Source: a virus
Lineage: Duplodnaviria > Caudoviricetes
IMG/VR virus record: IMGVR_UViG_3300037634_006988
Location: 23,916-87,915 of that record
Direction: 5' to 3' (one strand)
DNA: 64,000 bases
Part shown: positions 1,353 to 59,221 of the stretch, one piece after another
How positions within the stretch are numbered: position 1 is the first letter of the stretch
Layout: every line of letters starts with the position of its first letter
Program-made: the position numbers and the translations under genes
Notes under the pieces: model-generated
What the model was told of the DNA's origin: nothing
Database searches by the model: none
The model's input: only the letters and a program-made list of their open reading frames with translations

Positions 1353-4300
1353 TATAGCCACCTCCTCCCTTTCCTCGACCAGGCTTCATTAAGCCCACAT
1401 CACGTCCAGGTTGTTTGGTTGTGGTTGGGCCTGTCATTCCTTGAACTTCTGCCGGTGGTCTACCAGGATCAAATGGTGGCTTAGACAAATTTGGTTTTAC
1501 CATAAGGTTGGACATAATGTCGTCTACATCCCAGTTGGATGTAACTGCATCAAGCATGGGGCCGGTGGGAACAACACCTGGAATATCTTCGGCACTCGTG
1601 GTGGGGTCTAAAGTTGAAGTCGTAGTCAAATCTGGTCCCCGTGCCGTTGTTGGACCTTTGGGTTTAATATTTGGTGGCGATAAAACGGGTTTGCGAGGAC
1701 TTTCTTCTGTTCCACCACCACCAGTATTTAAAATAAAATATTCATCATATGTGGGCAAATCTGAACCCGGGTGTCTTTTTATTTTAAGTGTTCCGTTTTC
1801 CCACGGTCTTATTCTACATAAAAGATTTTTATGACTCATAGTATTATATGCCGCTCGGTTTAATGTTTTCCACACTGGCAAACCTGTTGAAAACTCTTCA
1901 TTATTGCCATATTTTGTTTTTTCATAATGATCCAAATATTGAATTTCTCCGATTGTTTCAAATAATATACGTGCCTTTGGACTTAAGTGTGCGTTTTCAA
2001 AAGGCTCTTTATCTAAGAAATCTGACATCGCGGTTCTTAATGACCCACCGCCAACACCTGGAACTTGTCCGCCCATAGACGAATGACTAATCAATGCTTT
2101 AACTGGGTTCGGCAAATTATTAATCACGTCAACCGGCTCGGCCTTATAAAAACCATTTGGATTAGTTGGACTATAATAGTCTACGCTCTTTTGACTTGAA
2201 CCTTCTGGTAATTGAACGCCTGCACGATTTCCGTCGCTTACAACTCCATTAGAAATCAAATCCCAAAAAATATTAAACGCTTTTCGATTTTCTCCCGTTT
2301 GTGCGTTAGAACCTTTTGTATAATCTTCATTTGGTGTAGAGCTAAAATCCGAAACAGGAATATCACCAGGGTCAACAAAATCTGTTTGGGGTGACGGGCT
2401 TGGGACCGCAGTAAGATTATAATTGTATGAAAGAAAATCTGCCACTTTTTCTTGCAAAGAATCTGTAGAAAGAAACGAAGTGGCGCGTGTCCACGCAGTT
2501 ATTGAGGACGCCATTGAGTTCATAAATGTGCGACTATCAAAATGTGGCATATGAAGTTCGTTATGACCAACTAGAGGTAATGACGTACCTTCTGAATAAA
2601 CAACGGCTGGCGTCAAATATGAAAAATCAGTCACTTGTAATCGATCATCGGGAGTTATGTTTGCAAACCCACTCATATCAAGATGGGCATTTTCGCTGGT
2701 AAATATTTTTAATAATTCTTTTCGAATAATGTGTTTAAAGGTTGTATCTCCAATCATACGAATTCCTGAAGATTCTGGAATGCGAGGGAAACCCGTATAA
2801 TCTGCGCCCAAAAAATCAAATCCCGTGTCGGTCGGCATATTTCCATCATAATAATCTGAAAAAGTATGATCAATTTTAAAAATCTTAGCGCTTGGTTTGC
2901 CACCACTTTCAACATCTATTTGAAAAGTCGTGGAAGATTGGCCAGTTGCGTTTACACTATCTTCAACTTTTGGAAATTTGGACGGTTTTTCTTTCTGAAT
3001 TCCAATCGCCCGGTCCATAAAAGATAATAAATTTTCATAAAGATTTATAAGAACCATACAACCTTGAGGATTTCCTGAAGTGGGGCTAATAAATTCATTC
3101 AACATTTTTACCCACCCTTTGCCTTGTTTGACTGACACAGGCGTAAACATTTTTAACACATCAATATATTGTTCTGCGGCCTGATATGGCGGATTATTTC
3201 CATTCTCACTTATTGCAAAAGCTTGCGTAAATCGATTAGTGGTTGGATTAAAATATGCTTCTTGGGGTGAACCAGTGGCAAACTTATTTCCTGTTTGCGT
3301 ACCTGCATTATAATATTTTTTGAGGCCTCCTAACTCCAACATCAATTCAGATCTCTTTTCAATTAAAAGATCAACAATATTATCTTGTATTTCTAACTCA
3401 ACCATATATTGGTAATAGCCGTCAGTTTGTTCTGAGATGCGTCCGTCTGTACCACTGTAATATAAAATGCCCCCCCCCGTCTTGTCTTCAATGCCACTCA
3501 ATTGACGAATTGACGAAGCTCCGTCCATCGACGCGCCTCCTGAACCTTGAAAAGTATATTCGTTCCCATTCCAAGTCTCGCCCGCATTTATTATCAACTC
3601 TTCAGATGGGTCATAAGATACCTTTTTTGATTCTCCCGTTAATGTTACTGTTCTGCTTATTCCTAATGTTTTGCCCAAATTAGCAGTTGCAGTAAATAAT
3701 GGAGGTAATGAGCGCTGATTTCTCAACAAACCATTATCAAACTTTTTCAACTTAGGGGTTGGCTCAAACTTGTGATCTCCCGGAAAATAATATGGACTTG
3801 TCCCAACTTCTGAACTTCCTACAACACGCTTTCTATATATTTTCATCGAAAGAATACGAACCCTTAACAACGCTTCTTTTAGCCACCAAGGATTAGTGGT
3901 TGATTCTGCTACAAAAAGTTTTGAATAGGGAGTATTTTCTCTCACCAATTTCCTCAAGTCAAGTCCAAAGAAAAATCTGCAATTATTGTCTTGATCTCGT
4001 GATAGATGAATATCAGTAAAATAAGAAAATTTTGTATCCTTTATAATATTTCTTCGATTGTTATTAACTGCGCGTAAGAGATCATTCTCCAACATACTAA
4101 AATTAAGCTCTAATTTATCAAGTCTTTCCTTAATTCTAAAATCTTGAATTTTTGAATTTGTAACAGTTTGTCTAAAAAGATAAGGTTGTTCACCTCTTGT
4201 TGCGTTTGGGTCGTGTGATTCACCACCCATATATCCTGTATATCCCCCCATTGTACCGTAGTGATAGGGTCCAGTCCACAATTTATCAGTTTTAGTTAAA

Positions 4301-22000: not shown

Positions 22001-25000
22001 GAGTTTGTTCTGGTAAATGTTTTAATATAGTCATCTAATTCTGTTGCCTTGTCAGACCAATTTAAATCATCATGAAAACCAGCAGCAAGAAATCTTAAAA
22101 AGATTGCCATGCTTTTCTGTTCTCCTAAAGATATTCCGTAATTATATGCCTCATCGCTAGTTGAATCTGGAATATTTGGGTCGCCGCCAGGAATTGGATT
22201 TAACGCCAAAATTCCCTTATCTGTTGTCCATGAATTTGAGGAGTCTAAAAGCCCCGCCCCCCGCAAAATCTGACTTTCGCGAGATTTATAAGGACTGTTT
22301 AATCCTGTATTAGATTGTTTATTGGGAGATAATGCTTCAACTCCGGTTATATATTGCCAATCTTCTCCACCTTGCGTTAGGGGATAGCGGGGGGCCTCCT
22401 TAGACCAAATTTCAGCTTTCGAAACTGCATCTGTACCAAAATATTTTCTCATTAACATCCCAACTGGCAAATTCCTTAAAGTGGAAACCCTTTTTAAATC
22501 CTCCATCCATAAACCGGCGATTATTTCTTCCGAAAGAGTTCCATTAGATGCCAATACTAAAGCCTTATCGGCTGGAACCGGATTATTTGAACCACCATCA
22601 CCGGCACTATAAGAATCATTTTCTAAGATCTGATTATTACCTGTGCCCCCATCACGAATGCCATTGAGTTCTCGCGGCACACTATATTCAGGAATCCATG
22701 CAGGCTCTTCTGCACTCTCCTTTTGCAGCAAATAAGAGTCTAGATCTGTTTTTCCAGCCGCCCCAACAACTTTTGACAAACGATTCGAAACACCAAAAAT
22801 TTGGTATCTTATAAAATATTCTAACGCCACATCAAAATTTTTAGTTTCAGCTCGTGGAGGAGTTAAATTGGGTGCATTTCTATTATAAAGATCCAGTGTC
22901 TCAATTCTAAATTCACGTAAAAATGCTTTTTGTGCAACGTCTTTCTTAAGTAATTGCGCAATATACGACACCAACAAAGAATCAACAGAGTCGGGAGTGC
23001 TAAATCGAAACCAATAAAAACAATAAATGGACCTCAACATAACCTCCAAAACATATGTTCTGACTGTTAATAATACCGCCCCACTCAAATTTGCCTTTTC
23101 AAATGGATTATCTTTGTTTGTGCCCAATCCATCTACATTTGGAAAAGAAGCCTCGATACACTGAATTAATCCATATTCATCTTTAATTCTTTGCTTAATA
23201 ATTTCAAAATCTAATAAACTGGCATTAATGTCACACTCTTGCCCTATTTTATTCATAGGTATTAAGTCTAAGGTACTTAATTTACTCAACTCCATTAATG
23301 GAGATTCTGCAATCATTTTAGTAAAACTACAATAATAATCTCTCCACAACCCATCGTAAGCGCTATACTTGATTTGATCTCCATATCTCTTATCGTAGAG
23401 ATAATCTCCCAGAGATTCAGCATTGCCATCGCCAAGGAGGCCAACTCCTGCTCCTCTTAGTGAGAGCCCACCATCAGGTCGAATAACACTTGGTCCATTG
23501 GGCCATGCCTGATTATAATTCCAAGAAACAAATAATTGTTCTTGTGGAATGTGTTGAAGTGTTGGAGAATATATACAATTATGGAACGCCCGATAAATAT
23601 TATCACTTAACGAATCTTCTTTAGTATCTCGATAAACGACAAATGGGGGAGCAGATCCAGCAGCAGTGGTCAATAGAATAGTAATACCATATTGATCTTT
23701 TGGACGATTTCCATTTCGTGCTTCATCTGCTAACGATACGGAGTAAGGAACAATATATTTTATATCATAAGAAGAACCGTGAAGGCTTTGAAAAGCCTCA
23801 ACTATACCACTAATACTTTCTCTAGCAATTTGAGGATCTATTCCTTCTGGTAGAGAAGGTGCTGCGTCTATTGAAGGAATCACCTTGTTCGTAATAAGTT
23901 CCATAGCCACGTCTGTCATACCAGCAGTTTCAAAAAGATTATTATCCACTTTAAAATTATAATAATGGTAAGAATTGTCATTATCGGTTATATTAAAAAG
24001 TCCTTCATTAATGCACATTGTCTGATATGCCTTCTTTAAGCCAGGAGCAAATTTAGATGGTGCCCTTTCTTTAACAGTAATTGGAATGGGAGAATATCCA
24101 TAAAGGTTGGTATACTCAGCTAATTTTTGGCCCCCACGATTTGTTGTATCATATTCTGATGCACGTCGTCTGCCTCGCGATGTTACATATTGTGCTGGCC
24201 CCGGCCGAATCTGAGATATTTCCCATTCATATTCTTGTTCTGCTGTTGGTTGCGTTTGACCAGTGCTCATTTGTCCCCCAACAAGTCGATCTCGTATTTC
24301 ATCACCCGCTGGCCACGCCAAATCGGGATCATCCACCACACCATTTGCTTCTTCTTCTGTGTCTCTACCAACGAGAGGTTCGTTCATCCAGCGTATAATA
24401 TTTTTTCCTGGTTGAGCCGCATCAGCAGGTAATGCACCAAAAGAATATCTTAAGTTTTGATCTTGGACCATGCTTACCCATTCTTGATTTAATTGGCGCT
24501 CTGAAGTTCCATCTGGATTTGTAACCCTTATTGTTCTCTTAATGGGACGTTCTACAATTGGTTGTTTCGTTAATATTGGTATAAGTCCTTCCAGATTTTC
24601 GTTAAATGCCATCGCAATACTATCATAAATTGTACTCAGAACTTTGTTCATCATAAAAATAAGCGATGGATGATCTTTTTCTACTAATCCCGGCTGAATT
24701 CCCCGATGAACTTCTTGTTTAGTTTCTTTGGAAATAAACTTTTTATTGTCATTGGGGTCAGTCATTACCCTTTCGGGTGGAATTATTTCACCTTGCTCAT
24801 CTCGATAAACCATTTTGCAGAAAATAGCAGGAGTCGCATCACCCAGCAAATCCCCCTTTTCCAACATTTTTGCTAAATCTTCAAGGCGTTGCTGTTTACG
24901 AGCACGAGATTTATCAATTTGATCCTTAATTTGAGACGCTGACAATCCTTTGCCTGCCAATAAACTTTGACGCATGGCAGTATCATCAGCATCACATAAA

Positions 25001-46848: not shown

Positions 46849-48174
46849 TTAAAGAACTTTGGCTGTTAAAGTTGCTACTTTAGAACGTTCTCCCTTTAAG
46901 AATGTAATGTGGCCAGTAATATCATAAGGCTTCAATTTTTCAATGGCATAAGTCAATCCATTTGAAGTTTCATCAATATTGACGTTATCGATTTGTTCAA
47001 TATCACCCGTTAAAACAATCTTGCTGTCGTTTCCAACACGAGTTAAAATAGTTTTGATTTCGTGACGTGTTAAATTCTGACATTCATCAACAATAATGTA
47101 AGCTTTTTGAATTGATCTTCCCCTTATATAAGTTAATGCCTCAATTTCAATAATCTTTTTTTGCATATATTGATAAAGCATTAAATTATCATCACCAAAC
47201 AGAAATCTCAGGTTATCCTGAATAGGAGCAAGCCAAGGAGCCATTTTCTCTTCCAATGTTCCAGGCAAATATCCCAAATCTTTTCCCATTGGTTGAATTG
47301 GTCTTGTGACAATCAGTCTATTATATACTGAATCCTGGCTCATCACCTGTTGAAGTCCAGCAGCGATAGCACATAATGTTTTTCCACTTCCGGCTTTTCC
47401 AATTAATGAAACAATTGGAACTTCAGGATCTAAAAGTAACTCAAGTGCAAAATTTTGCTCTTTATTTTTTGGTGCAATTCCCCAACCATCCTCTTCTTTG
47501 TGTTCAATAATCTTTTTAAACTCTGTCTGCGCATTAAGAAATCTGGTTATCGCCGTTTTCTTTTCATTTGATGAAGAAACTAACATCACAAATTGATTAG
47601 CAAATAATTCTGGCTTATCATCAACTGCATCTGATAAGAATATTTTTTCACCCGCATAAAATCTATCAATAATTTGGTCATCGACCAAAATCTTAGCAAA
47701 TCCACCATAAAGTTCGTGGCTACTTTTGATAACTTTTTCTGTTTTATAATCTTCAGCGGATATACCAATTGCATCACATTTAATTCTTAAGTTTATGTCA
47801 TTGGAAACAACAATAACTTTGCGTTGTGGGAATTCTTTTTTAACAGTTAATGCTGTTGCAATAATCTGATGGTCAGGTACTTTTGAAGAATATCCTGCGG
47901 GCAACTCATTTAAGTCAGGAGCTTTTGTAAAGCAAAGCCCCGACCCTCTTCTAATGCGAAGCCCTTTTTGAAAATTTCCCTTTTCCCTGAGTTCATCTAG
48001 CGTTCGAATAATTCTTCTTGCATTTATTCCAACCCCATTTGGTCTTTTTTTACATTTGTCTAATTCTTCTAATACAACGAGTGGAATAATAATATCGTTC
48101 GTGCCGTAAGAAAAAATCGAACGATAATCCGTTAGATACACGCTGGTGTCTAATACATAAAACTTTTTTGCCAT
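46849..48174 (-). CDS. phoH: PIN-domain PhoH-like ATPase
   Basis: VLDTSV PIN start, Walker A GKAGSGKT, YIRGRS, VDECQN and GDIEQID. Confidence 0.95.
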   Translation of the reverse strand: MAKKFYVLDTSVYLTDYRSIFSYGTNDIIIPLVVLEELDKCKKRPNGVGINARRIIRTLDELREKGNFQKGLRIRRGSGLCFTKAPDLNELPAGYSSKVPDHQIIATALTVKKEFPQRKVIVVSNDINLRIKCDAIGISAEDYKTEKVIKSSHELYGGFAKILVDDQIIDRFYAGEKIFLSDAVDDKPELFANQFVMLVSSSNEKKTAITRFLNAQTEFKKIIEHKEEDGWGIAPKNKEQNFALELLLDPEVPIVSLIGKAGSGKTLCAIAAGLQQVMSQDSVYNRLIVTRPIQPMGKDLGYLPGTLEEKMAPWLAPIQDNLRFLFGDDNLMLYQYMQKKIIEIEALTYIRGRSIQKAYIIVDECQNLTRHEIKTILTRVGNDSKIVLTGDIEQIDNVNIDETSNGLTYAIEKLKPYDITGHITFLKGERSKVATLTAKVL

Positions 48175-48279
48175 ATAACCCTTCCATTTGAGTGTCTCTT
48201 AGCCATGAGGCTCATTTCTAAATAGATTGGTAGTTTGGGTTTTGACCCTATAGTTACTTTATAAAGGCCATTAATGTAA

Positions 48280-49134
48280 TTGAGAAGCACTATCGCAAAG
48301 TTTGTTTTATTTCTTATGATATACGTGACATTTGTGGGATGTTCGTCGTGCGCGTCGAGTTCTTATTTTCTTAATTCCGGCGATCTTTTTAGAGGTGCAA
48401 GAAAATCTTTTATAAAGCTCGCCTCCTATAACAAAGTTACTATAACAAATACTTCCTCCACTTCCGCTATTCACCAACGTCATGAATTAGAATTAAAATC
48501 TTCAGCTTCAGGTTTTATCGTAGGTCATAACAAGGATATAACTCTTGTTGCAACATCGGCACATGTTTGCACAATTTTAATGGGCAATCAAATAAATCAT
48601 TTCATCTCACGTTATTCTACTAATGATTCTGATTGGGAATTGGTCGAAAAAAATAAATTTATTTTAAATGATTATGCAGGTAAAAAATATCGAGGCGTAA
48701 TAATTGATTATAATATCGATTATGACATTTGTATTTTGGGATCTTCACGAATTCCATATCCAGCATTACCAATATCTAAGACTGCACCTGTAATTGGAGA
48801 AAAATATTACAACATAGCAGCCCCAATGGGATTATGGTCAAAAACAATGATTCCTTTATTTGAGGGTCGTTTTCTGGGAATGATGAAAAGGTCTACAGAT
48901 AGAGAAATATCTTATTTGTTCTCTATTCCAACAATAGGGGGATCTTCTGGTTCTCCAATTTTAAACATATATGGACAAGTTGTGGCCGTAACTCATTCAG
49001 CTTATAGCGGTTTCCAACATATAGCCATGGCCACCACACATAATCAGTTGAAAGACACTTACGATGAAGCAATAAAAAAATTATCAGAAGATTATGAGGC
49101 TTATATGCTTATCATTACTTTAGCGAATATTTGA
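48280..49134 (+). CDS. Trypsin-like serine protease with a lipoprotein-like signal
   Basis: Catalytic triad TSAHVC / DYDIC / GGSSGSP; hydrophobic N-terminus ending VGCSSC. Confidence 0.8.
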   Translation: MRSTIAKFVLFLMIYVTFVGCSSCASSSYFLNSGDLFRGARKSFIKLASYNKVTITNTSSTSAIHQRHELELKSSASGFIVGHNKDITLVATSAHVCTILMGNQINHFISRYSTNDSDWELVEKNKFILNDYAGKKYRGVIIDYNIDYDICILGSSRIPYPALPISKTAPVIGEKYYNIAAPMGLWSKTMIPLFEGRFLGMMKRSTDREISYLFSIPTIGGSSGSPILNIYGQVVAVTHSAYSGFQHIAMATTHNQLKDTYDEAIKKLSEDYEAYMLIITLANI

Positions 49135-49375
49135 TGGAGGTGGGGGGAATCGAACCCCCGTCCTAAATGCTTTAATAAACTGCGTTATACAAGGTTAAAG
49201 ATTAATAACCCCGGTTTTGGGTAACAAGGAAACCGGGAACCCCGCCAAAACTACTTAAGCAGCCATTGGAAGTGCAACATTATCGTTTGCATTTATAAGT
49301 TTAAGCCTTTTAGTGTTTACTCAGACACCCTTGCACAAATCTATCTCGACACCCAGTCGATACCTGGTCACCCCC
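49135..49375 (-). ncRNA. ssrA: tmRNA (one-piece, 241 nt), tag ANDNVALPMAA
   Basis: 5' GGGGGUG pairs with 3' CACCUCC-A, including the G3.U alanine identity pair. GGUAUCGAC motif, T-arm GGGGG-UUCGAUU-CCCCC, pk1, and resume codon GCA after AUAAAU. Tag at 49255-49290; CCA is not encoded. Confidence 0.95.
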
Positions 49376-49390
49376 GTAATAAGTATTATA

Positions 49391-49702
49391 CTATCTATTG
49401 AGACTCTTCATCGTTGTTCGATAAAAATATTTATCCATTCCAAGTTCTCGCATATCTTCATCAGAGATACCCGACAACATTTTTTGAACTTCTGGTCCTA
49501 ACCGAGGTTTCATTTTTGGATATTGTCTGCCAATATCAACAGCCATGTTCATATATTTCATAAATAAGTTAGATTGACCACTACCTTTTGCTCTTTGCAT
49601 ATTACTAATCAAATTATCAGCTATATCACTTGATTCGTCTTCCACTAGGTTTTCTAACTCCTCTTTAATAATTTGTTGAAGTTTGACTTTTGTTAGTTTC
49701 AT
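49391..49702 (-). CDS. Hypothetical protein with an MKLTKxKLxQIIKEE N-terminus (putative head-internal protein)
   Basis: N-terminal motif shared with 57853-58248; SD AAGGAG. Confidence 0.6.
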   Translation of the reverse strand: MKLTKVKLQQIIKEELENLVEDESSDIADNLISNMQRAKGSGQSNLFMKYMNMAVDIGRQYPKMKPRLGPEVQKMLSGISDEDMRELGMDKYFYRTTMKSLNR

Positions 49703-49725
49703 TATAATGATCTCCTTAGATTACT

Positions 49726-49742
49726 ATAAATAGTCTCTTAAA
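49726..49742 (-). promoter_or_regulatory. Putative late-promoter element TTTAAGAGACTATTTAT (copy 1)
   Basis: 17 bp identical to 58271-58287; both copies lie upstream of MKLTK genes. Confidence 0.6.
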
Positions 49743-49746
49743 GGCG

Positions 49747-49891
49747 AAAAAAAGAAGTACCCAAGATTGTTATTTCTTCGCAGTAACAAAGCTAGGCTCA
49801 CTCGCAATTATATCTTTAGCAGAGCCATCAAAGTTTAGTTTATTTTAATTTAATAGTTAAGATTTATCTTGTTATTGTACTTCCAACTACT
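49747..49891 (-). ncRNA. Candidate structured small RNA (~145 nt)
   Basis: Consensus sigma70 promoter directly upstream. Closing stems GAAGUAC/GUACUUC and CAAGA/UCUUG, internal hairpins GGCUC/GAGCC and UUGUUA/UAACAA, then a U7 tract; no credible ORF. Confidence 0.55.
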
Positions 49892-49897
49892 GTTTTT

Positions 49898-49926
49898 ATA
49901 CTAACATCATTCTGACTCCTTGTCAA
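49898..49926 (-). promoter_or_regulatory. Sigma70-type promoter
   Basis: TTGACA-N17-TAGTAT. Confidence 0.7.
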
Positions 49927-50278
49927 CTTCTTCTTCAAAATAATTGTCTACTTGATGTTTTCTCAATAAATTATTGAAGCCTTGTTCATGAAGTCCCAAA
50001 AACCTCGCCGCTTCTCGTTTAGATCGAGTCGCGGATACCGCATATTTTAATACTGCGTCCTTCACGATGGTTCGTAAAGAATACCAAATTGGTAAGCCAT
50101 ACATTTTACCTCTTAAGCCAAATTTTGAAGCCAATTCCAACTTCAGGCCGATAACCTCTTCCAATGAAAGGTTATTAAAAAGGATCTCAAACTCTTCGCT
50201 TGATTTCCCCTCTTTTCTTAGTTTATTAGAAAGTGAATAATAACGGTTTCGTCCGCTATTCTGATTCTTCTTTATCAT
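49907..50278 (-). CDS. Fis-family helix-turn-helix protein
   Basis: AVLKYAVSATRSKREAARFLGLHEQGFNNLLRKHQV is an HTH_8-like pattern. Confidence 0.65.
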   Translation of the reverse strand: MIKKNQNSGRNRYYSLSNKLRKEGKSSEEFEILFNNLSLEEVIGLKLELASKFGLRGKMYGLPIWYSLRTIVKDAVLKYAVSATRSKREAARFLGLHEQGFNNLLRKHQVDNYFEEEVDKESE

Positions 50279-50534
50279 TAGCAACCCCAAGTATACCATA
50301 ACCTGCTATATCTTTAAAAGGGCTTTCACCGAAAGCCTCTTTTTGTGTTGCTATTCTAAATAATTTGTCAACAATTCTGGTGACTGCTAACATGTCTTTA
50401 TATTGTTTGGGTTCAATTCCGTCTGGATATAGAACTTTTAATATTTCTTCTGATTTTTCAAATGCGCTGCCATACGCTATGTTCTTTTCATCTACAAGTT
50501 TGCCTATTTCTGTGCCAATTTTTTCAAATCTCAT
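50256..50534 (-). CDS. Nucleotide-modification-associated domain protein (Nmad1/DUF1599-like)
   Basis: KNIAYG...RIVDKLFRI...DIAGYGIL pattern; start moved to the ATG after GAGG. Confidence 0.55.
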   Translation of the reverse strand: MRFEKIGTEIGKLVDEKNIAYGSAFEKSEEILKVLYPDGIEPKQYKDMLAVTRIVDKLFRIATQKEAFGESPFKDIAGYGILGVANDKEESE

Positions 50535-50544
50535 TAATGCCTCA

Positions 50545-51528
50545 TTATATAAGTTCTTGGCCAGGTGCTTCGGGGGGTAATTCTCCACCAATTCCTGCGT
50601 CAAATTCCGCGCCAGCTTCAACGCCAGCCTCGCCTTCGTCTTGTTCTGCTTCATATTCATCTGTTGTTGGCTCCGTTACTGGTCCAAGCTCACTTTCCCA
50701 TTTATCAAAATATAGTTTTAAATTTGTGATAAGATAATCTTCAAAAAGTTTTTCATCTTGGTCATCATGTAGTATAGCATAAGTTTCAGCAATATTTTTC
50801 TCTATATTATTAAATGCTTCTTGAGCCATTGCTTTACCAGTTTCATCTTGTCCTTCAATTCCAAAAGTATCCACTTCTTCTGGCTCAGGCACTGGTTTAT
50901 CTTCAATATCAATAAATTTATCTTCGGGGGTGGCATCAACATCAGATACTTTAATATCTACTTCTTCTTCTATATCTTCATCTTGTTCGTCTAAACTAAG
51001 CATTTCTTCTTCTGTGCCTGCTAAACCGCCTTCTTTATTAATATCTTCTGTTTCTAATAGTGTAGACACAGCACTCACAATGTGTGCCCTAAACGAATCC
51101 CTTTGTTCTTTGGAAGTTGTTAGGGTTTTATATTCTATTTCTAGATTAGGAAGAATTTGTTTGAGCAATTCCTCCAGAATATTAATTGCTGTCGAAGAAT
51201 GCGGAGTTACTTCTACATCTTTCTTTGCTTCTTGAATTAATATTCTAACCACCTCACGAAGACGATCTTCATCATTTTTCTTTTCTTTTTGAAGTTTTTT
51301 GGATTCTGTTAATTTTTTATAATGCCTCTTTTTTAGGGCTTCATAAATAATTTCACGGAGAATCATTTCTTCAATAAATTGTTTTTGCTCGTCAACTTCT
51401 TCTTCGTCTTCTTCTCGAAAAATTGTGGGAGATTTTTTCTTTTTCGAACCAAGCGGAGATGAACTTCCTTCAACTGCTCCACCAGCCATTGAGGACATTT
51501 CTTCAAGATTTTCTTCTTTTTTAGCCAT
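50545..51528 (-). CDS. Highly acidic hypothetical protein (possible prohead core/internal protein)
   Basis: Glu/Asp-rich; repeated LRE-I/V-x-x-(I)-x-E segments. Confidence 0.55.
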   Translation of the reverse strand: MAKKEENLEEMSSMAGGAVEGSSSPLGSKKKKSPTIFREEDEEEVDEQKQFIEEMILREIIYEALKKRHYKKLTESKKLQKEKKNDEDRLREVVRILIQEAKKDVEVTPHSSTAINILEELLKQILPNLEIEYKTLTTSKEQRDSFRAHIVSAVSTLLETEDINKEGGLAGTEEEMLSLDEQDEDIEEEVDIKVSDVDATPEDKFIDIEDKPVPEPEEVDTFGIEGQDETGKAMAQEAFNNIEKNIAETYAILHDDQDEKLFEDYLITNLKLYFDKWESELGPVTEPTTDEYEAEQDEGEAGVEAGAEFDAGIGGELPPEAPGQELI

Positions 51529-51778
51529 TTTCTTTATCTTCCTGAAGTAGGGTAATTTGCTCTTCTAATTTATTAACTTGCTCTTGCAATCTTCGCGATG
51601 AACGCTTCAATTCACGCAATTGATGTTTCATAACTTCAATTCTTCTTTCTTCCGATAAACTGCGTGCTTTTAATGCACCAACATTTTCAGAAAGGGCTTG
51701 AATCCAACTATTAACGGTTGGACCAGTTCCTTCGCTTAAAATAAAGTTTTTCGCAAGTGAATCTAAATTAAATTTCAT
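51521..51778 (-). CDS. Small coiled-coil protein
   Basis: Heptad-like C-terminal half. Confidence 0.6.
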   Translation of the reverse strand: MKFNLDSLAKNFILSEGTGPTVNSWIQALSENVGALKARSLSEERRIEVMKHQLRELKRSSRRLQEQVNKLEEQITLLQEDKENG

Positions 51779-51781
51779 TTA

Positions 51782-51937
51782 TTAATCTCGATCAAAAAAT
51801 GATTTCTTTTTCTTCTTCTTTGGTTTGGGTTCTGGTTTTGGTTCTGCCTTTGGTTGCTCTGGAGCAACTTCGGGTGTATCCATTACACCAAATCCGCCAT
51901 TCATCCTCTTTCGTCGTCGTTTGCCTGGACTTGCCAT
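51782..51937 (-). CDS. Small basic peptide (51 aa)
   Basis: Manual translation MASPGKRRRKRMNGG...PKPEPKPKKKKKKSFFDRD; SD AAGGAG; fills the intergenic gap. Confidence 0.7.
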   Translation of the reverse strand: MASPGKRRRKRMNGGFGVMDTPEVAPEQPKAEPKPEPKPKKKKKKSFFDRD

Positions 51938-51950
51938 AATTTATTTCTCC

Positions 51951-53096
51951 TTATTTAATAATCTTTGACCAACGCTTCATAAGCGCTTCATTAAGTTCAA
52001 TTCGTGCTTTTTCTCGAATACTGCGATTTTTTGGAAAGAAAGACTCATCAAGCTCTTTTTCTTCATCAAGCTCTTTTTCTTCATCAAGCTCTTTTTCTTC
52101 ATCAAGCTCTTTTTCTTCATCAAGGTCTTTTTCTTCATCAAGCTCTTTTTCTTCATCAAGCTCTTTTTCTTCTTCAAGAGCTTCATGACCCTCATCATAA
52201 TCTTTATCATGTTTGAGGGCATCCAAGTGGCGCTCGATTGCCGCAATATGATCTTCATCGTGCCAAGAATCATGCTCATAATGCCTTTTTTCTTCCTCAC
52301 CAGAATCTTCGTCCAAGTTCTCTTCAAATTTGCTTTTAGATTTTGATTCATAACCCGCTTTTGCTGGGTCTGTTTTATCAAATTCACCTTTTGCAGTTCC
52401 TTCTTCTTGAACCTCTCCCTCGGCTAGAGCAGAGCTTTCACCCTTATAAACAGCCCCCGGTTGATCACCAGATTTTTCGGCCTCTTCTTCGGCAGCTCTC
52501 GCAGCCATAGACTTTGTAGGATCCGAAACCATATCACCTTCTTTTAATATCTTTCGAATCGTACCGCGAATTATAGTACGCAATTGCGATTCTTTTAAAT
52601 TCTTTTTCATTTTATCTCCCTCAATTAATGCGCTACTCACAACATCGCTAGTTGGCGCAGGTACATATTGACTTGTGCTAGTAAATAGTGGCCTTCCACC
52701 CTTATCTTTTAATTTATCTTCCCAGTCCCGAAAGATCATATTGCCACATTCATATGCCTCTCGTTCCATTTCTCTTAAATGACCATCTTCTTGAGCATAA
52801 CCCGACATAGTTTCACCAGCATTATCAAAGTCTCCTCGACAATTTTGATTATGATGAACCAATTCGTGAGCCAAAGACCGCAGAATATCTTTAATATGCC
52901 GTCCTTGCGTATAAAGTCCAATTTTGTGTTCAGTTGGTGAATAATGGGCGGTTTTACCCAAAGGATTGGCCATGTTATCTTTATCGCTTAATATGCTAAT
53001 TTTTACATGTGGGCCAAAGCCCAATTCATCCCGAGCCGAATTATATAGACTTTTCATTAAAGGCATGAATTTACCAATTCTTTCGGATTCGTGCAT
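51951..53096 (-). CDS. HExxH-domain protein with an acidic (EKELDE)n tail, putative head-internal protein
   Basis: LRSLAHELVHHNQ...EREAY; internal KESQLRTIIRGTIRKILKE motif; acidic repeat. Confidence 0.65.
   Translation of the reverse strand: MHESERIGKFMPLMKSLYNSARDELGFGPHVKISILSDKDNMANPLGKTAHYSPTEHKIGLYTQGRHIKDILRSLAHELVHHNQNCRGDFDNAGETMSGYAQEDGHLREMEREAYECGNMIFRDWEDKLKDKGGRPLFTSTSQYVPAPTSDVVSSALIEGDKMKKNLKESQLRTIIRGTIRKILKEGDMVSDPTKSMAARAAEEEAEKSGDQPGAVYKGESSALAEGEVQEEGTAKGEFDKTDPAKAGYESKSKSKFEENLDEDSGEEEKRHYEHDSWHDEDHIAAIERHLDALKHDKDYDEGHEALEEEKELDEEKELDEEKDLDEEKELDEEKELDEEKELDEEKELDESFFPKNRSIREKARIELNEALMKRWSKIIK
52045..52170 (-). repeat. In-frame 18-bp tandem repeat x7 encoding EKELDE
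   Basis: Plus-strand unit tcatcaagctctttttct; six identical copies and one with a single substitution. Confidence 0.95.
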
Positions 53097-58248: not shown

Positions 58249-58270
58249 TGATTGTTTCCCCTAAACAACA

Positions 58271-58287
58271 ATAAATAGTCTCTTAAA
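58271..58287 (-). promoter_or_regulatory. Putative late-promoter element (copy 2)
   Basis: Identical to 49726-49742. Confidence 0.6.
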
Positions 58288-59139: not shown

Positions 59140-59221
59140 TGCTCACAGAGGGACTTGAACCCCCACGCTTATTAGCAAAAGATTTTAAATCTTTCGTGTC
59201 TACCGTTTCCACCATGCAAGC
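59140..59221 (-). tRNA. trnL: tRNA-Leu(UAA), CCA not encoded
   Basis: Acceptor stem GCUUGCA/UGUGAGC-A, D-loop GG, anticodon stem AAAGA/UCUUU with loop UUUAAAA, long variable arm, and GUUCAAGU T-loop. Confidence 0.9.

Follow-up and report, generated by a model that had tools for sequence, protein, structure and literature searches.

The DNA analysed here, called the window throughout, is a stretch of 64,000 nucleotides (positions 23,916 to 87,915) of the IMG/VR virus record IMGVR_UViG_3300037634_006988. The window encodes a T4-type baseplate wedge protein, and on its minus strand a structured RNA element lies between a gene for a small HTH protein and a phage tmRNA, with a 103-aa ORF between the element and the tmRNA (Table 1). 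Neither a tRNA-like nor a tmRNA-like identity was found for the element itself; ARAGORN and Rfam call only the tmRNA and the tRNA-Leu listed in the table.

Table 1. Features of the RNA locus and its surroundings in the window. P1, Pa, P2 and P3 are the helices of the RNA; J1 and J2/3 are its unpaired linkers.
Feature	Position	Strand	Remarks
Small HTH protein gene	49907-50299	-	upstream of the RNA; ends inside the -35 hexamer
-35 hexamer TTGACA	49921-49926	-	perfect; within the last codons of the upstream HTH gene
Extended -10, TG-n-TAGTAT	49898-49905	-	TG before the second hexamer, which lies at 49903-49898
Match to covariance model R1	49749-49884	-	95.5 bits, E ~1e-13; sole match in the 87.9-kb record
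P1 extension, 5' strand	49877-49883	-	pairs with 49754-49760
P1 core, 5' strand	49866-49871	-	pairs with 49762-49767; found independently by RNAalifold
J1	49834-49865	-	A/U-rich linker of variable length and sequence; mostly gapped, non-conserved columns
Hairpin Pa	49814-49833	-	49829-49833 with 49814-49818; 10-nt loop holds the P2 5' strand (49822-49826)
P2, 3' strand	49795-49799	-	pairs with the Pa loop (49822-49826), giving an H-type pseudoknot
J2/3	49789-49794	-	unpaired junction, UAGC and two bases; near-invariant, columns invariant in alignment A1
P3 hairpin	49768-49788	-	49782-49788 with 49768-49774; conserved 7-nt purine-rich loop
P1 core and P1 extension, 3' strands	49754-49767	-	
U7 tract	49747-49753	-	directly 3' of the closing stem
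103-aa ORF	49391-49702		between the RNA and the tmRNA; own promoter-like box at 49722-49734
Phage tmRNA, 241 nt	49135-49375	-	ARAGORN and Rfam; usual downstream partner of the RNA
tRNA-Leu	59140-59221		ARAGORN/Rfam

The element is preceded by a sigma70-type promoter (49926-49898) that matches at 10/12 positions, has the additional TG and is the best match within positions 48000-52000; promoter-like sites around the element are no more frequent than in shuffled sequence. A first-pass annotation, made from the letters of the window, had already proposed this promoter, with its 17-nt spacer between the -35 and -10 hexamers, and it proves to be conserved: TTGACA, a spacer of 16-18 nt and a TAnnnT -10 stand upstream of the RNA in 74 of 87 non-redundant homologues. 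The promoter-less instances include contigs that are cut short as well as copies of subfamily 2 (see below), which have a longer 5' region with the promoter farther upstream. From spacing only, transcription is predicted to start near 49891, 6-7 nt before the outer stem. The predicted transcript of the window would be ~145 nt long, and the core of the family spans ~100-140 nt.

The HTH protein resembles the Fis/NtrC type of HTH only weakly. Translation probably begins at the second methionine (ATG at 50278) rather than at 50299, because relatives carry in-frame stops there (L015:1976-2000; L018:814-838), and the later start would likely shrink the apparent overlap with the upstream ORF (50256-50660). 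The gene lies directly upstream of the element, on the same strand, in 75 of the 76 instances with enough sequence, including copies that were found by the RNA pattern alone, and the distance from its stop codon to the element ranges from 8 to 136 nt. This tight linkage can be explained simply by the shared promoter. Some relatives of the HTH gene have no RNA behind them (L027, L028, L033, L037); in these, the tmRNA follows the same promoter directly.

A conserved pseudoknotted RNA domain

To gather homologues, we searched with the HTH protein and obtained 80 viral-contig loci, ~30 of which align with the window's intergenic region directly downstream of the gene. From the 3' part of the element, where conservation is highest, we derived a DNA pattern, and scans with it returned 33 viral contigs and at least 118 metagenome contigs. 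We aligned 25 diverse copies with plain MAFFT, without fitting to structure (alignment A1), and built the covariance model R1 from this alignment. Most of the viral and metagenome pattern matches agree with R1, the remainder being chance pattern matches, and R1 matches at least ~115 viral and metagenome loci at E < 1e-7. Removing duplicates from among the matches listed left 87 non-redundant instances (alignment A2). The E-values of R1 are rough by design; bit scores within the family are 60-119, vs 13.6 for the best match in the T4 region considered below.

The same pattern was run on prokaryotes, with one genome for each of 185,579 species. This gave 13 pattern matches, of which 0/13 match R1, and which are hence due to chance. 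No match was found among 50,697 deposited phage genomes, either by blastn with the region or by tblastn with the HTH protein. Exactly one copy of the RNA is present per long contig tested, and for contigs of 83-157 kb, CheckV gives estimates of 46-71%, which suggests genomes of roughly 170-220 kb. The family is restricted to one clade of marine T4-type myophages that are uncultured, and so far it is seen in phage sequence only.

The RNA has four helices (P1, Pa, P2 and P3). In A1, 91.3% of the cells pair, vs 83.0% in shuffles, and 16 of the 28 pairs show compensatory change; 0/500 shuffles reach the observed values. When the pairing partners are slid by 1-3 columns, pairing drops to 34-47%. 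With the alignment as its only input, RNAalifold returns P1, P2 and P3. In A2, 93.7% of the cells pair, compensatory changes are found in 20/28 pairs and the covariation score is 0.372 vs 0.150. Relatedness among the 87 sequences inflates the significance given by the shuffle control, a weakness that does not affect the slid-partner control or the compensatory changes between subfamilies.

Each helix contributes to this signal. P1 has compensatory changes in 8/10 pairs, and this covarying helix has a median length of 11 pairs and reaches more than 20, lengths that are lower bounds, as the greedy script used tends to stop short where internal loops interrupt the helix, as it does in the window. 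In Pa, 91.8% of the cells pair and 5/6 pairs are compensatory in A2; since Pa was not part of the model, it is not an alignment artefact. P2 pairs in 99-100% of the cells, with A-U replacing G-C in 24 sequences, and P3 in 96.6%, with three compensatory pairs. At the unpaired bases in the Pa loop, between P2 and P3 and in the P3 loop, A1 shows little or no variation. Covariation together with invariant junction bases in an aptamer-like conserved fold is what is looked for in riboswitch-type RNAs, and the element shows this combination. G-U pairs are common at several positions, where the other strand would have A-C mismatches, which indicates that the minus strand of the window is the transcribed one and argues against an element acting at the level of DNA.

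The conserved pseudoknotted RNA domain is real. The first-pass annotation had proposed looking for covariation, and would have given up the RNA if none were found or if the structure were merely the terminator of the upstream gene; all four helices covary strongly, and neither of these applies. The homologues are essential to this conclusion: folded alone, the window sequence has an MFE of -26.2 kcal/mol, vs -24.4 +/- 3.2 for its shuffles (z = -0.57). This is the level of chance, and support for the RNA therefore rests on the ~115 homologues.

Much of the fold in the window had been read correctly from the single sequence. Both the outer and the inner part of the closing stem (P1 extension and P1 core) lie where they were first placed, as do the U7 end and the UUGUUA/UAACAA hairpin, which is P3 and adjoins the P1 3' strand. 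A GGCUC/GAGCC pairing had been described as a hairpin; the pairing is real, but it is P2, the second stem of the pseudoknot, and the hairpin Pa, whose loop contains the P2 5' strand, had been overlooked. Similarly, an A/U-rich unpaired strand of ~40 nt is present (J1), but it is the least conserved part of the RNA and has no opposing strand. The P1 extension is also found, one pair longer, in the window's sub-clade (L007, L014, L143, L185 and others).

The U7 tract is likely the 3' end of the RNA in the window phage. A terminator scan made no call at this site (49747-49760). We also considered an intrinsic terminator of the HTH gene, which would be a compact G+C-rich hairpin with a loop of 3-8 nt just before a U-run, and rejected it: the stem beside U7 encloses a domain of ~120 nt, and the U-run is absent in 45 of the 87 homologues.

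The Pa loop contains an invariant ATG, with which a mini-ORF begins in many copies; it is 5-8 codons long there and 6 codons long in the window (49814-49828). It was rejected as a coding sequence, as both its length and its frame vary, and the Ala-to-Thr change of its second codon coincides with the compensating change in the partner base. We read it as a by-product of the RNA structure.

The copies fall into subfamilies. In the main group, the P1 core is as in the window. In subfamily 2 (L032, L114, L118, L138, L141, L161, L181, L183, L233, L235, L246 and L035), both strands of the P1 core have changed together, and there is an extra 5' helix with the P1 5' strand in its loop; as drawn from the sequences, this helix would turn P1 into a second pseudoknot. 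Read from the alignments, the extra helix covaries between L032, L181, L035 and L246. The tmRNA behind subfamily 2 is invariably a longer one (~360-410 nt), its tag ending in YALAA or YAIAA, while the tmRNAs of subfamily-1 phages are ~240 nt long. Subfamily 3 (L034, L036, L042, L044, L049, L058 and L060) has a higher G+C content and occupies the same genomic place. R1 matches only L049 (E 0.26) and L034 (E 0.64) among these, both weakly. The four-helix topology is nevertheless kept, with 92.1% of the cells pairing and 15/28 pairs compensatory, and since R1 barely detects copies that share this topology, the family is older and broader than the model shows. In L042 (3350-3490) and L044 (3347-3484), a segment overlapping the Pa 5' strand offers a second complement to the P1 5' strand. 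This alternative pairing would exclude P1 and Pa and is thus a possible switch, seen in these two related sequences only.

Downstream genes and comparison with known RNAs

The gene that follows the RNA varies. Among the 87 instances, it is a tRNA-Gly (UCC, called by ARAGORN) in 38, at a median of 14 nt after the P1 core, and a tmRNA in 24, at a median of 25 nt. Another 21 have other contexts, and four contigs are too short for assignment. The 21 comprise nine HldE-type adenylyltransferase genes and three HldD-type epimerase genes (12 ADP-heptose genes), as well as nine genes that are of other kinds or separately promoted. The adenylyltransferase stands between the RNA and the tRNA-Gly or tmRNA in L005, L007, L150, L153, L163, L191, L202 and L252, and the epimerase does so in L029, L148 and L179; the window phage has its ADP-heptose genes ~9 kb off, in a glycan cluster. 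The presence of these genes near the RNA reflects either a recurrent gene placement or a regulatory link.

In the window and four relatives (L247, L241, L139 and L227), the RNA is followed by a U-tract, then a promoter-like box, and then a gene whose product has an N-terminus of the 103-aa-ORF type. In L185, the window's closest relative, no gene intervenes between RNA and tmRNA, which makes the 103-aa ORF an insertion into an ancestral RNA-tmRNA unit. The interval between the two looks like an insertion hot spot. Across the family, a run of at least five U occurs within 32 nt of P1 in 42/87 instances. Where tRNA-Gly follows, 25/38 copies have a U-run between P1 and the tRNA, which has no promoter of its own. 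In ~14 instances, an ORF with a Shine-Dalgarno sequence begins 10-30 nt after P1 with no U-tract, and here the RNA resembles a 5' UTR.

Comparison with Rfam 15 gave no match to the element, either at the gathering score over the window or at E<=10 over positions 49600-50050. At ten homologous loci (E<=1), the motif was likewise unmatched, and only tmRNA, tRNA and tmRNA_permuted were found. Rfam covers 6S, glnA, Downstream-peptide, manA, wcaG, epsC/EAR, the self-cleaving ribozyme families and the tRNA clan. Closer inspection of L171 yielded just one further match, to an sRNA and far below threshold (23 bits vs a gathering score of 99). The tmRNA_permuted matches that overlap the motif were set aside; their score comes from the 5' half of the tmRNA, and the motif is treated as an insert. 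The Rfam scan suggested in the first-pass annotation thus yields no family, 6S included, and the annotation's central claim of a discrete structured non-coding RNA gene is supported, with a conserved promoter of its own, a closing stem and, in the window, a U-tract. With respect to Rfam 15 the family is uncatalogued. It may be an unnamed entry in a catalogue published in 2023, which lists 10,006 structured-RNA candidates from IMG/VR and RNA viruses (PMC10690425). A genome-language-model preprint leaves tmRNA unmentioned.

Several phage RNAs resemble the element in context. Like T4 rnaC and rnaD (species 1 and 2 RNAs), which are small, stable, non-coding orphan RNAs in a T4-type tRNA gene cluster, it keeps company with tRNA genes. 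T4 rnaC and rnaD are made from the same precursor as the tRNAs. However, they are promoter-distal and follow tRNA-Arg, whereas the window-type RNA is promoter-proximal, and with filters off, the best match of R1 in T4 positions 69000-74000 has 13.6 bits (E 0.66) and does not lie over rnaC/rnaD. The two are analogous in context, not homologous. The closest published precedent comes from Melnitz-like phages and pelagimyophages, in which a glutamine riboswitch is reported to adjoin an ssrA gene driven by an early promoter (PMC9004378). As in the OM43 phage Melnitz, a pseudoknotted RNA domain here forms part of an early-promoter tmRNA unit in marine T4-like phages of streamlined bacteria. Unlike the element, which precedes a one-piece tmRNA, the glnA domain of Melnitz lies on the 3' side of a two-piece ssrA, and there is no sequence likeness; the Rfam glnA and Downstream-peptide models do not match the element. 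The manA and wcaG motifs (RF01745, RF01761; PMC2864571) are also orphan motifs, nearly all from marine metagenomes and T4-like phages, and sometimes precede sugar-nucleotide genes. Both are in Rfam, but neither matches the element; they are built differently and show no tie to the HTH gene, tRNA-Gly or tmRNA.

Possible functions of the RNA

We tentatively prefer to see the element as an autonomous, stably folded RNA of a new family, which would bind a factor and be the first product of an early stable-RNA operon, although our confidence in this stays a little short of even. Host sigma70 polymerase would start early in infection at the promoter embedded in the 3' end of the HTH gene, and the RNA would be the first product transcribed, its 5' and 3' ends pairing as a long P1 that encloses the Pa/P2 H-type pseudoknot and P3. 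In most relatives, the same transcript would run on into tRNA-Gly(UCC) and/or tmRNA, 7-50 nt downstream, the RNA being the promoter-proximal member of the operon. Its 3' end would be formed by termination at the U-tract behind P1 (in the window), or by an RNase P cut at the 5' end of the next tRNA or tmRNA (in relatives), and the folded RNA may bind a protein or a small factor early in infection. We favour this reading because P1 is long and freely covarying, a habit of stable RNAs rather than of a ligand-gated P1, because several copies stand alone before a separately promoted gene (the window, L247, L241, L139 and L227), and because the downstream genes share no common function. Against it stand the ~14 copies resembling 5' UTRs, and the U-run before a promoterless tRNA-Gly in 25/38 copies would suit an attenuator equally well. 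Complex junctions with near-invariant unpaired bases are, moreover, typical of ligand-binding leaders, which also counts against an autonomous RNA. An Hfq-type sRNA or a protein sponge, both mentioned in the first-pass annotation, is possible; the window has the U-tail and the A/U-rich linker of the Hfq type, but the linker is not conserved.

The element could also be a signal-sensing leader that gates early tmRNA/tRNA transcription, either as a ligand riboswitch or by reprogramming the polymerase in the manner of put/EAR; judged from the sequences, this is possible but unlikely. Taken by itself, a cis-acting sensor, whether riboswitch-like or a protein-dependent attenuator, appears rather unlikely. 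P1, beside the U-tract, would then decide between stop and read-through, and where an ORF follows, the fold would set whether its ribosome-binding site is open. The RNA always lies right after the start site and upstream of something, it combines a pseudoknot with near-invariant junction bases, and the U-run that follows P1 in 42/87 copies includes cases immediately followed by a promoterless tRNA or ORF (L143, L007). The 5' UTR-like copies, the concentration of two ADP-heptose genes (HldE-type and HldD-type) in 12/21 of the other contexts, and the glutamine riboswitch beside phage ssrA in Melnitz-like phages (PMC9004378) point the same way. However, the downstream genes lack a common function and are mostly RNA genes, and P1 is longer and more stable than ligand-gated P1 stems. 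To our knowledge, control of RNA genes by riboswitches is not established. Reading the alignments, we found no alternative pairing conserved across subfamilies, possible alternatives appearing only in small groups (L042/L044); several copies stand alone before a separately promoted gene, and no Rfam likeness points to a ligand. By analogy with put (of phage HK022) and EAR (the epsC motif), which are folded RNAs just after a promoter that act on any downstream cargo, the nascent RNA might instead bind its own polymerase as a processive antiterminator, carrying it past terminators and Rho and ensuring that an untranslated stable-RNA operon and its inserts are fully transcribed. Put antiterminates without proteins. 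Such a role would explain the strict promoter-proximal position, the indifference to cargo and the read-through of the RNA's own U-tract into promoterless tRNA genes, and EAR is likewise pseudoknotted and serves a sugar-polymer operon (Weinberg 2010, PMC2864571). It is nonetheless improbable: the element has no likeness to put or epsC/EAR in sequence or Rfam model, the stand-alone copies that end in a U-tract oppose constitutive read-through, and the argument is drawn from position alone. We also know of no precedent for this kind of antitermination in T4-type phages. If a leader of either kind were at work, it would be the first well-defined RNA switch on viral stable-RNA (trans-translation) genes.

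That no functional RNA exists here, and that the element is a terminator or 3' UTR of the HTH gene, a DNA-level site such as a set of operators for its protein, or a very short ORF, is very improbable. The element does lie only 8-136 nt behind the HTH stop codon, about half of the copies have a U-tract, and the ATG of the Pa loop is invariant. However, four helices, including those of the pseudoknot, show compensatory changes and tolerate G-U on one strand only, which is at odds with a DNA site; the mini-ORF is constant in neither length nor frame, a consensus promoter separates the HTH gene from the element, and a conserved core of 100-140 nt far exceeds what a terminator needs. We rejected the small-ORF, DNA-site and pure-terminator readings on covariation. 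The 6S-like decoy of the first-pass annotation, which would sequester host sigma70 holoenzyme, is scarcely credible. The element is like 6S RNA (RF00013) in that its 5' and 3' ends form a closing stem and its gene is of the abundant-RNA type, with a strong sigma70 promoter. 6S RNA, at ~180 nt, forms a rod that is largely double-stranded, and its conserved central bubble imitates an open promoter. The long closing stem, the unpaired A/U-rich strand and the phage's own late sigma factor speak for a decoy, and nothing more does. The core of P1, the Pa/P2 pseudoknot and P3 is no rod with a central bubble, the strand taken for the bubble is unconserved and unopposed, and the RNA has 100-140 nt rather than ~180 nt. 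The Rfam 6S model does not match the element at E<=10, nor any of the ten homologues. Nor does anything tie the RNA to the phage sigma factor, as the annotation had suggested.

Whichever reading holds, orphan RNAs with a pseudoknot, a long closing helix and near-invariant junctions have often proved to be riboswitches, ribozymes or protein-binding machines. With more than 100 natural variants showing clear covariation, from abundant uncultured large marine T4-type phages, a seed alignment and a model are ready for use. The place of the RNA at the head of an early tmRNA/tRNA-Gly operon offers a handle on why phages carry tmRNA, as well as on their handling of host transcription and translation during the first minutes after infection.

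Some minor observations concern the sequence around the RNA. In L020, L021 and L022 (~3546-3570), the T-run before the tRNA-Gly varies from ~9 to ~20 T in contigs that are otherwise near-identical, which may reflect homopolymer slippage or an artefact of assembly or sequencing. In L244 (5556-5600), the RNA is near-identical to that of L014 and L230, but a G+C-rich sequence takes the place of their tmRNA 5' end; this is either a replacement or a chimeric contig. Two likenesses seen by eye were too weak to retain: that of J1 to a late-promoter-like box, and that of the P1 5' strand to part of the tmRNA. Finally, a conserved box of ~13 nt (ACTATTTAT, followed by a purine-rich part) precedes, by ~10 nt, the Shine-Dalgarno sequence of genes encoding proteins that begin with MKLTK. 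It is found in the window at 49722-49734 and 58267-58279, and just 3' of the RNA in L139, L227, L241, L247 and L031. The window has four matches to the box with at most one mismatch, vs 1.2 expected, a number reached by 4/100 shuffles. This box is probably a phage-specific, perhaps late, promoter.
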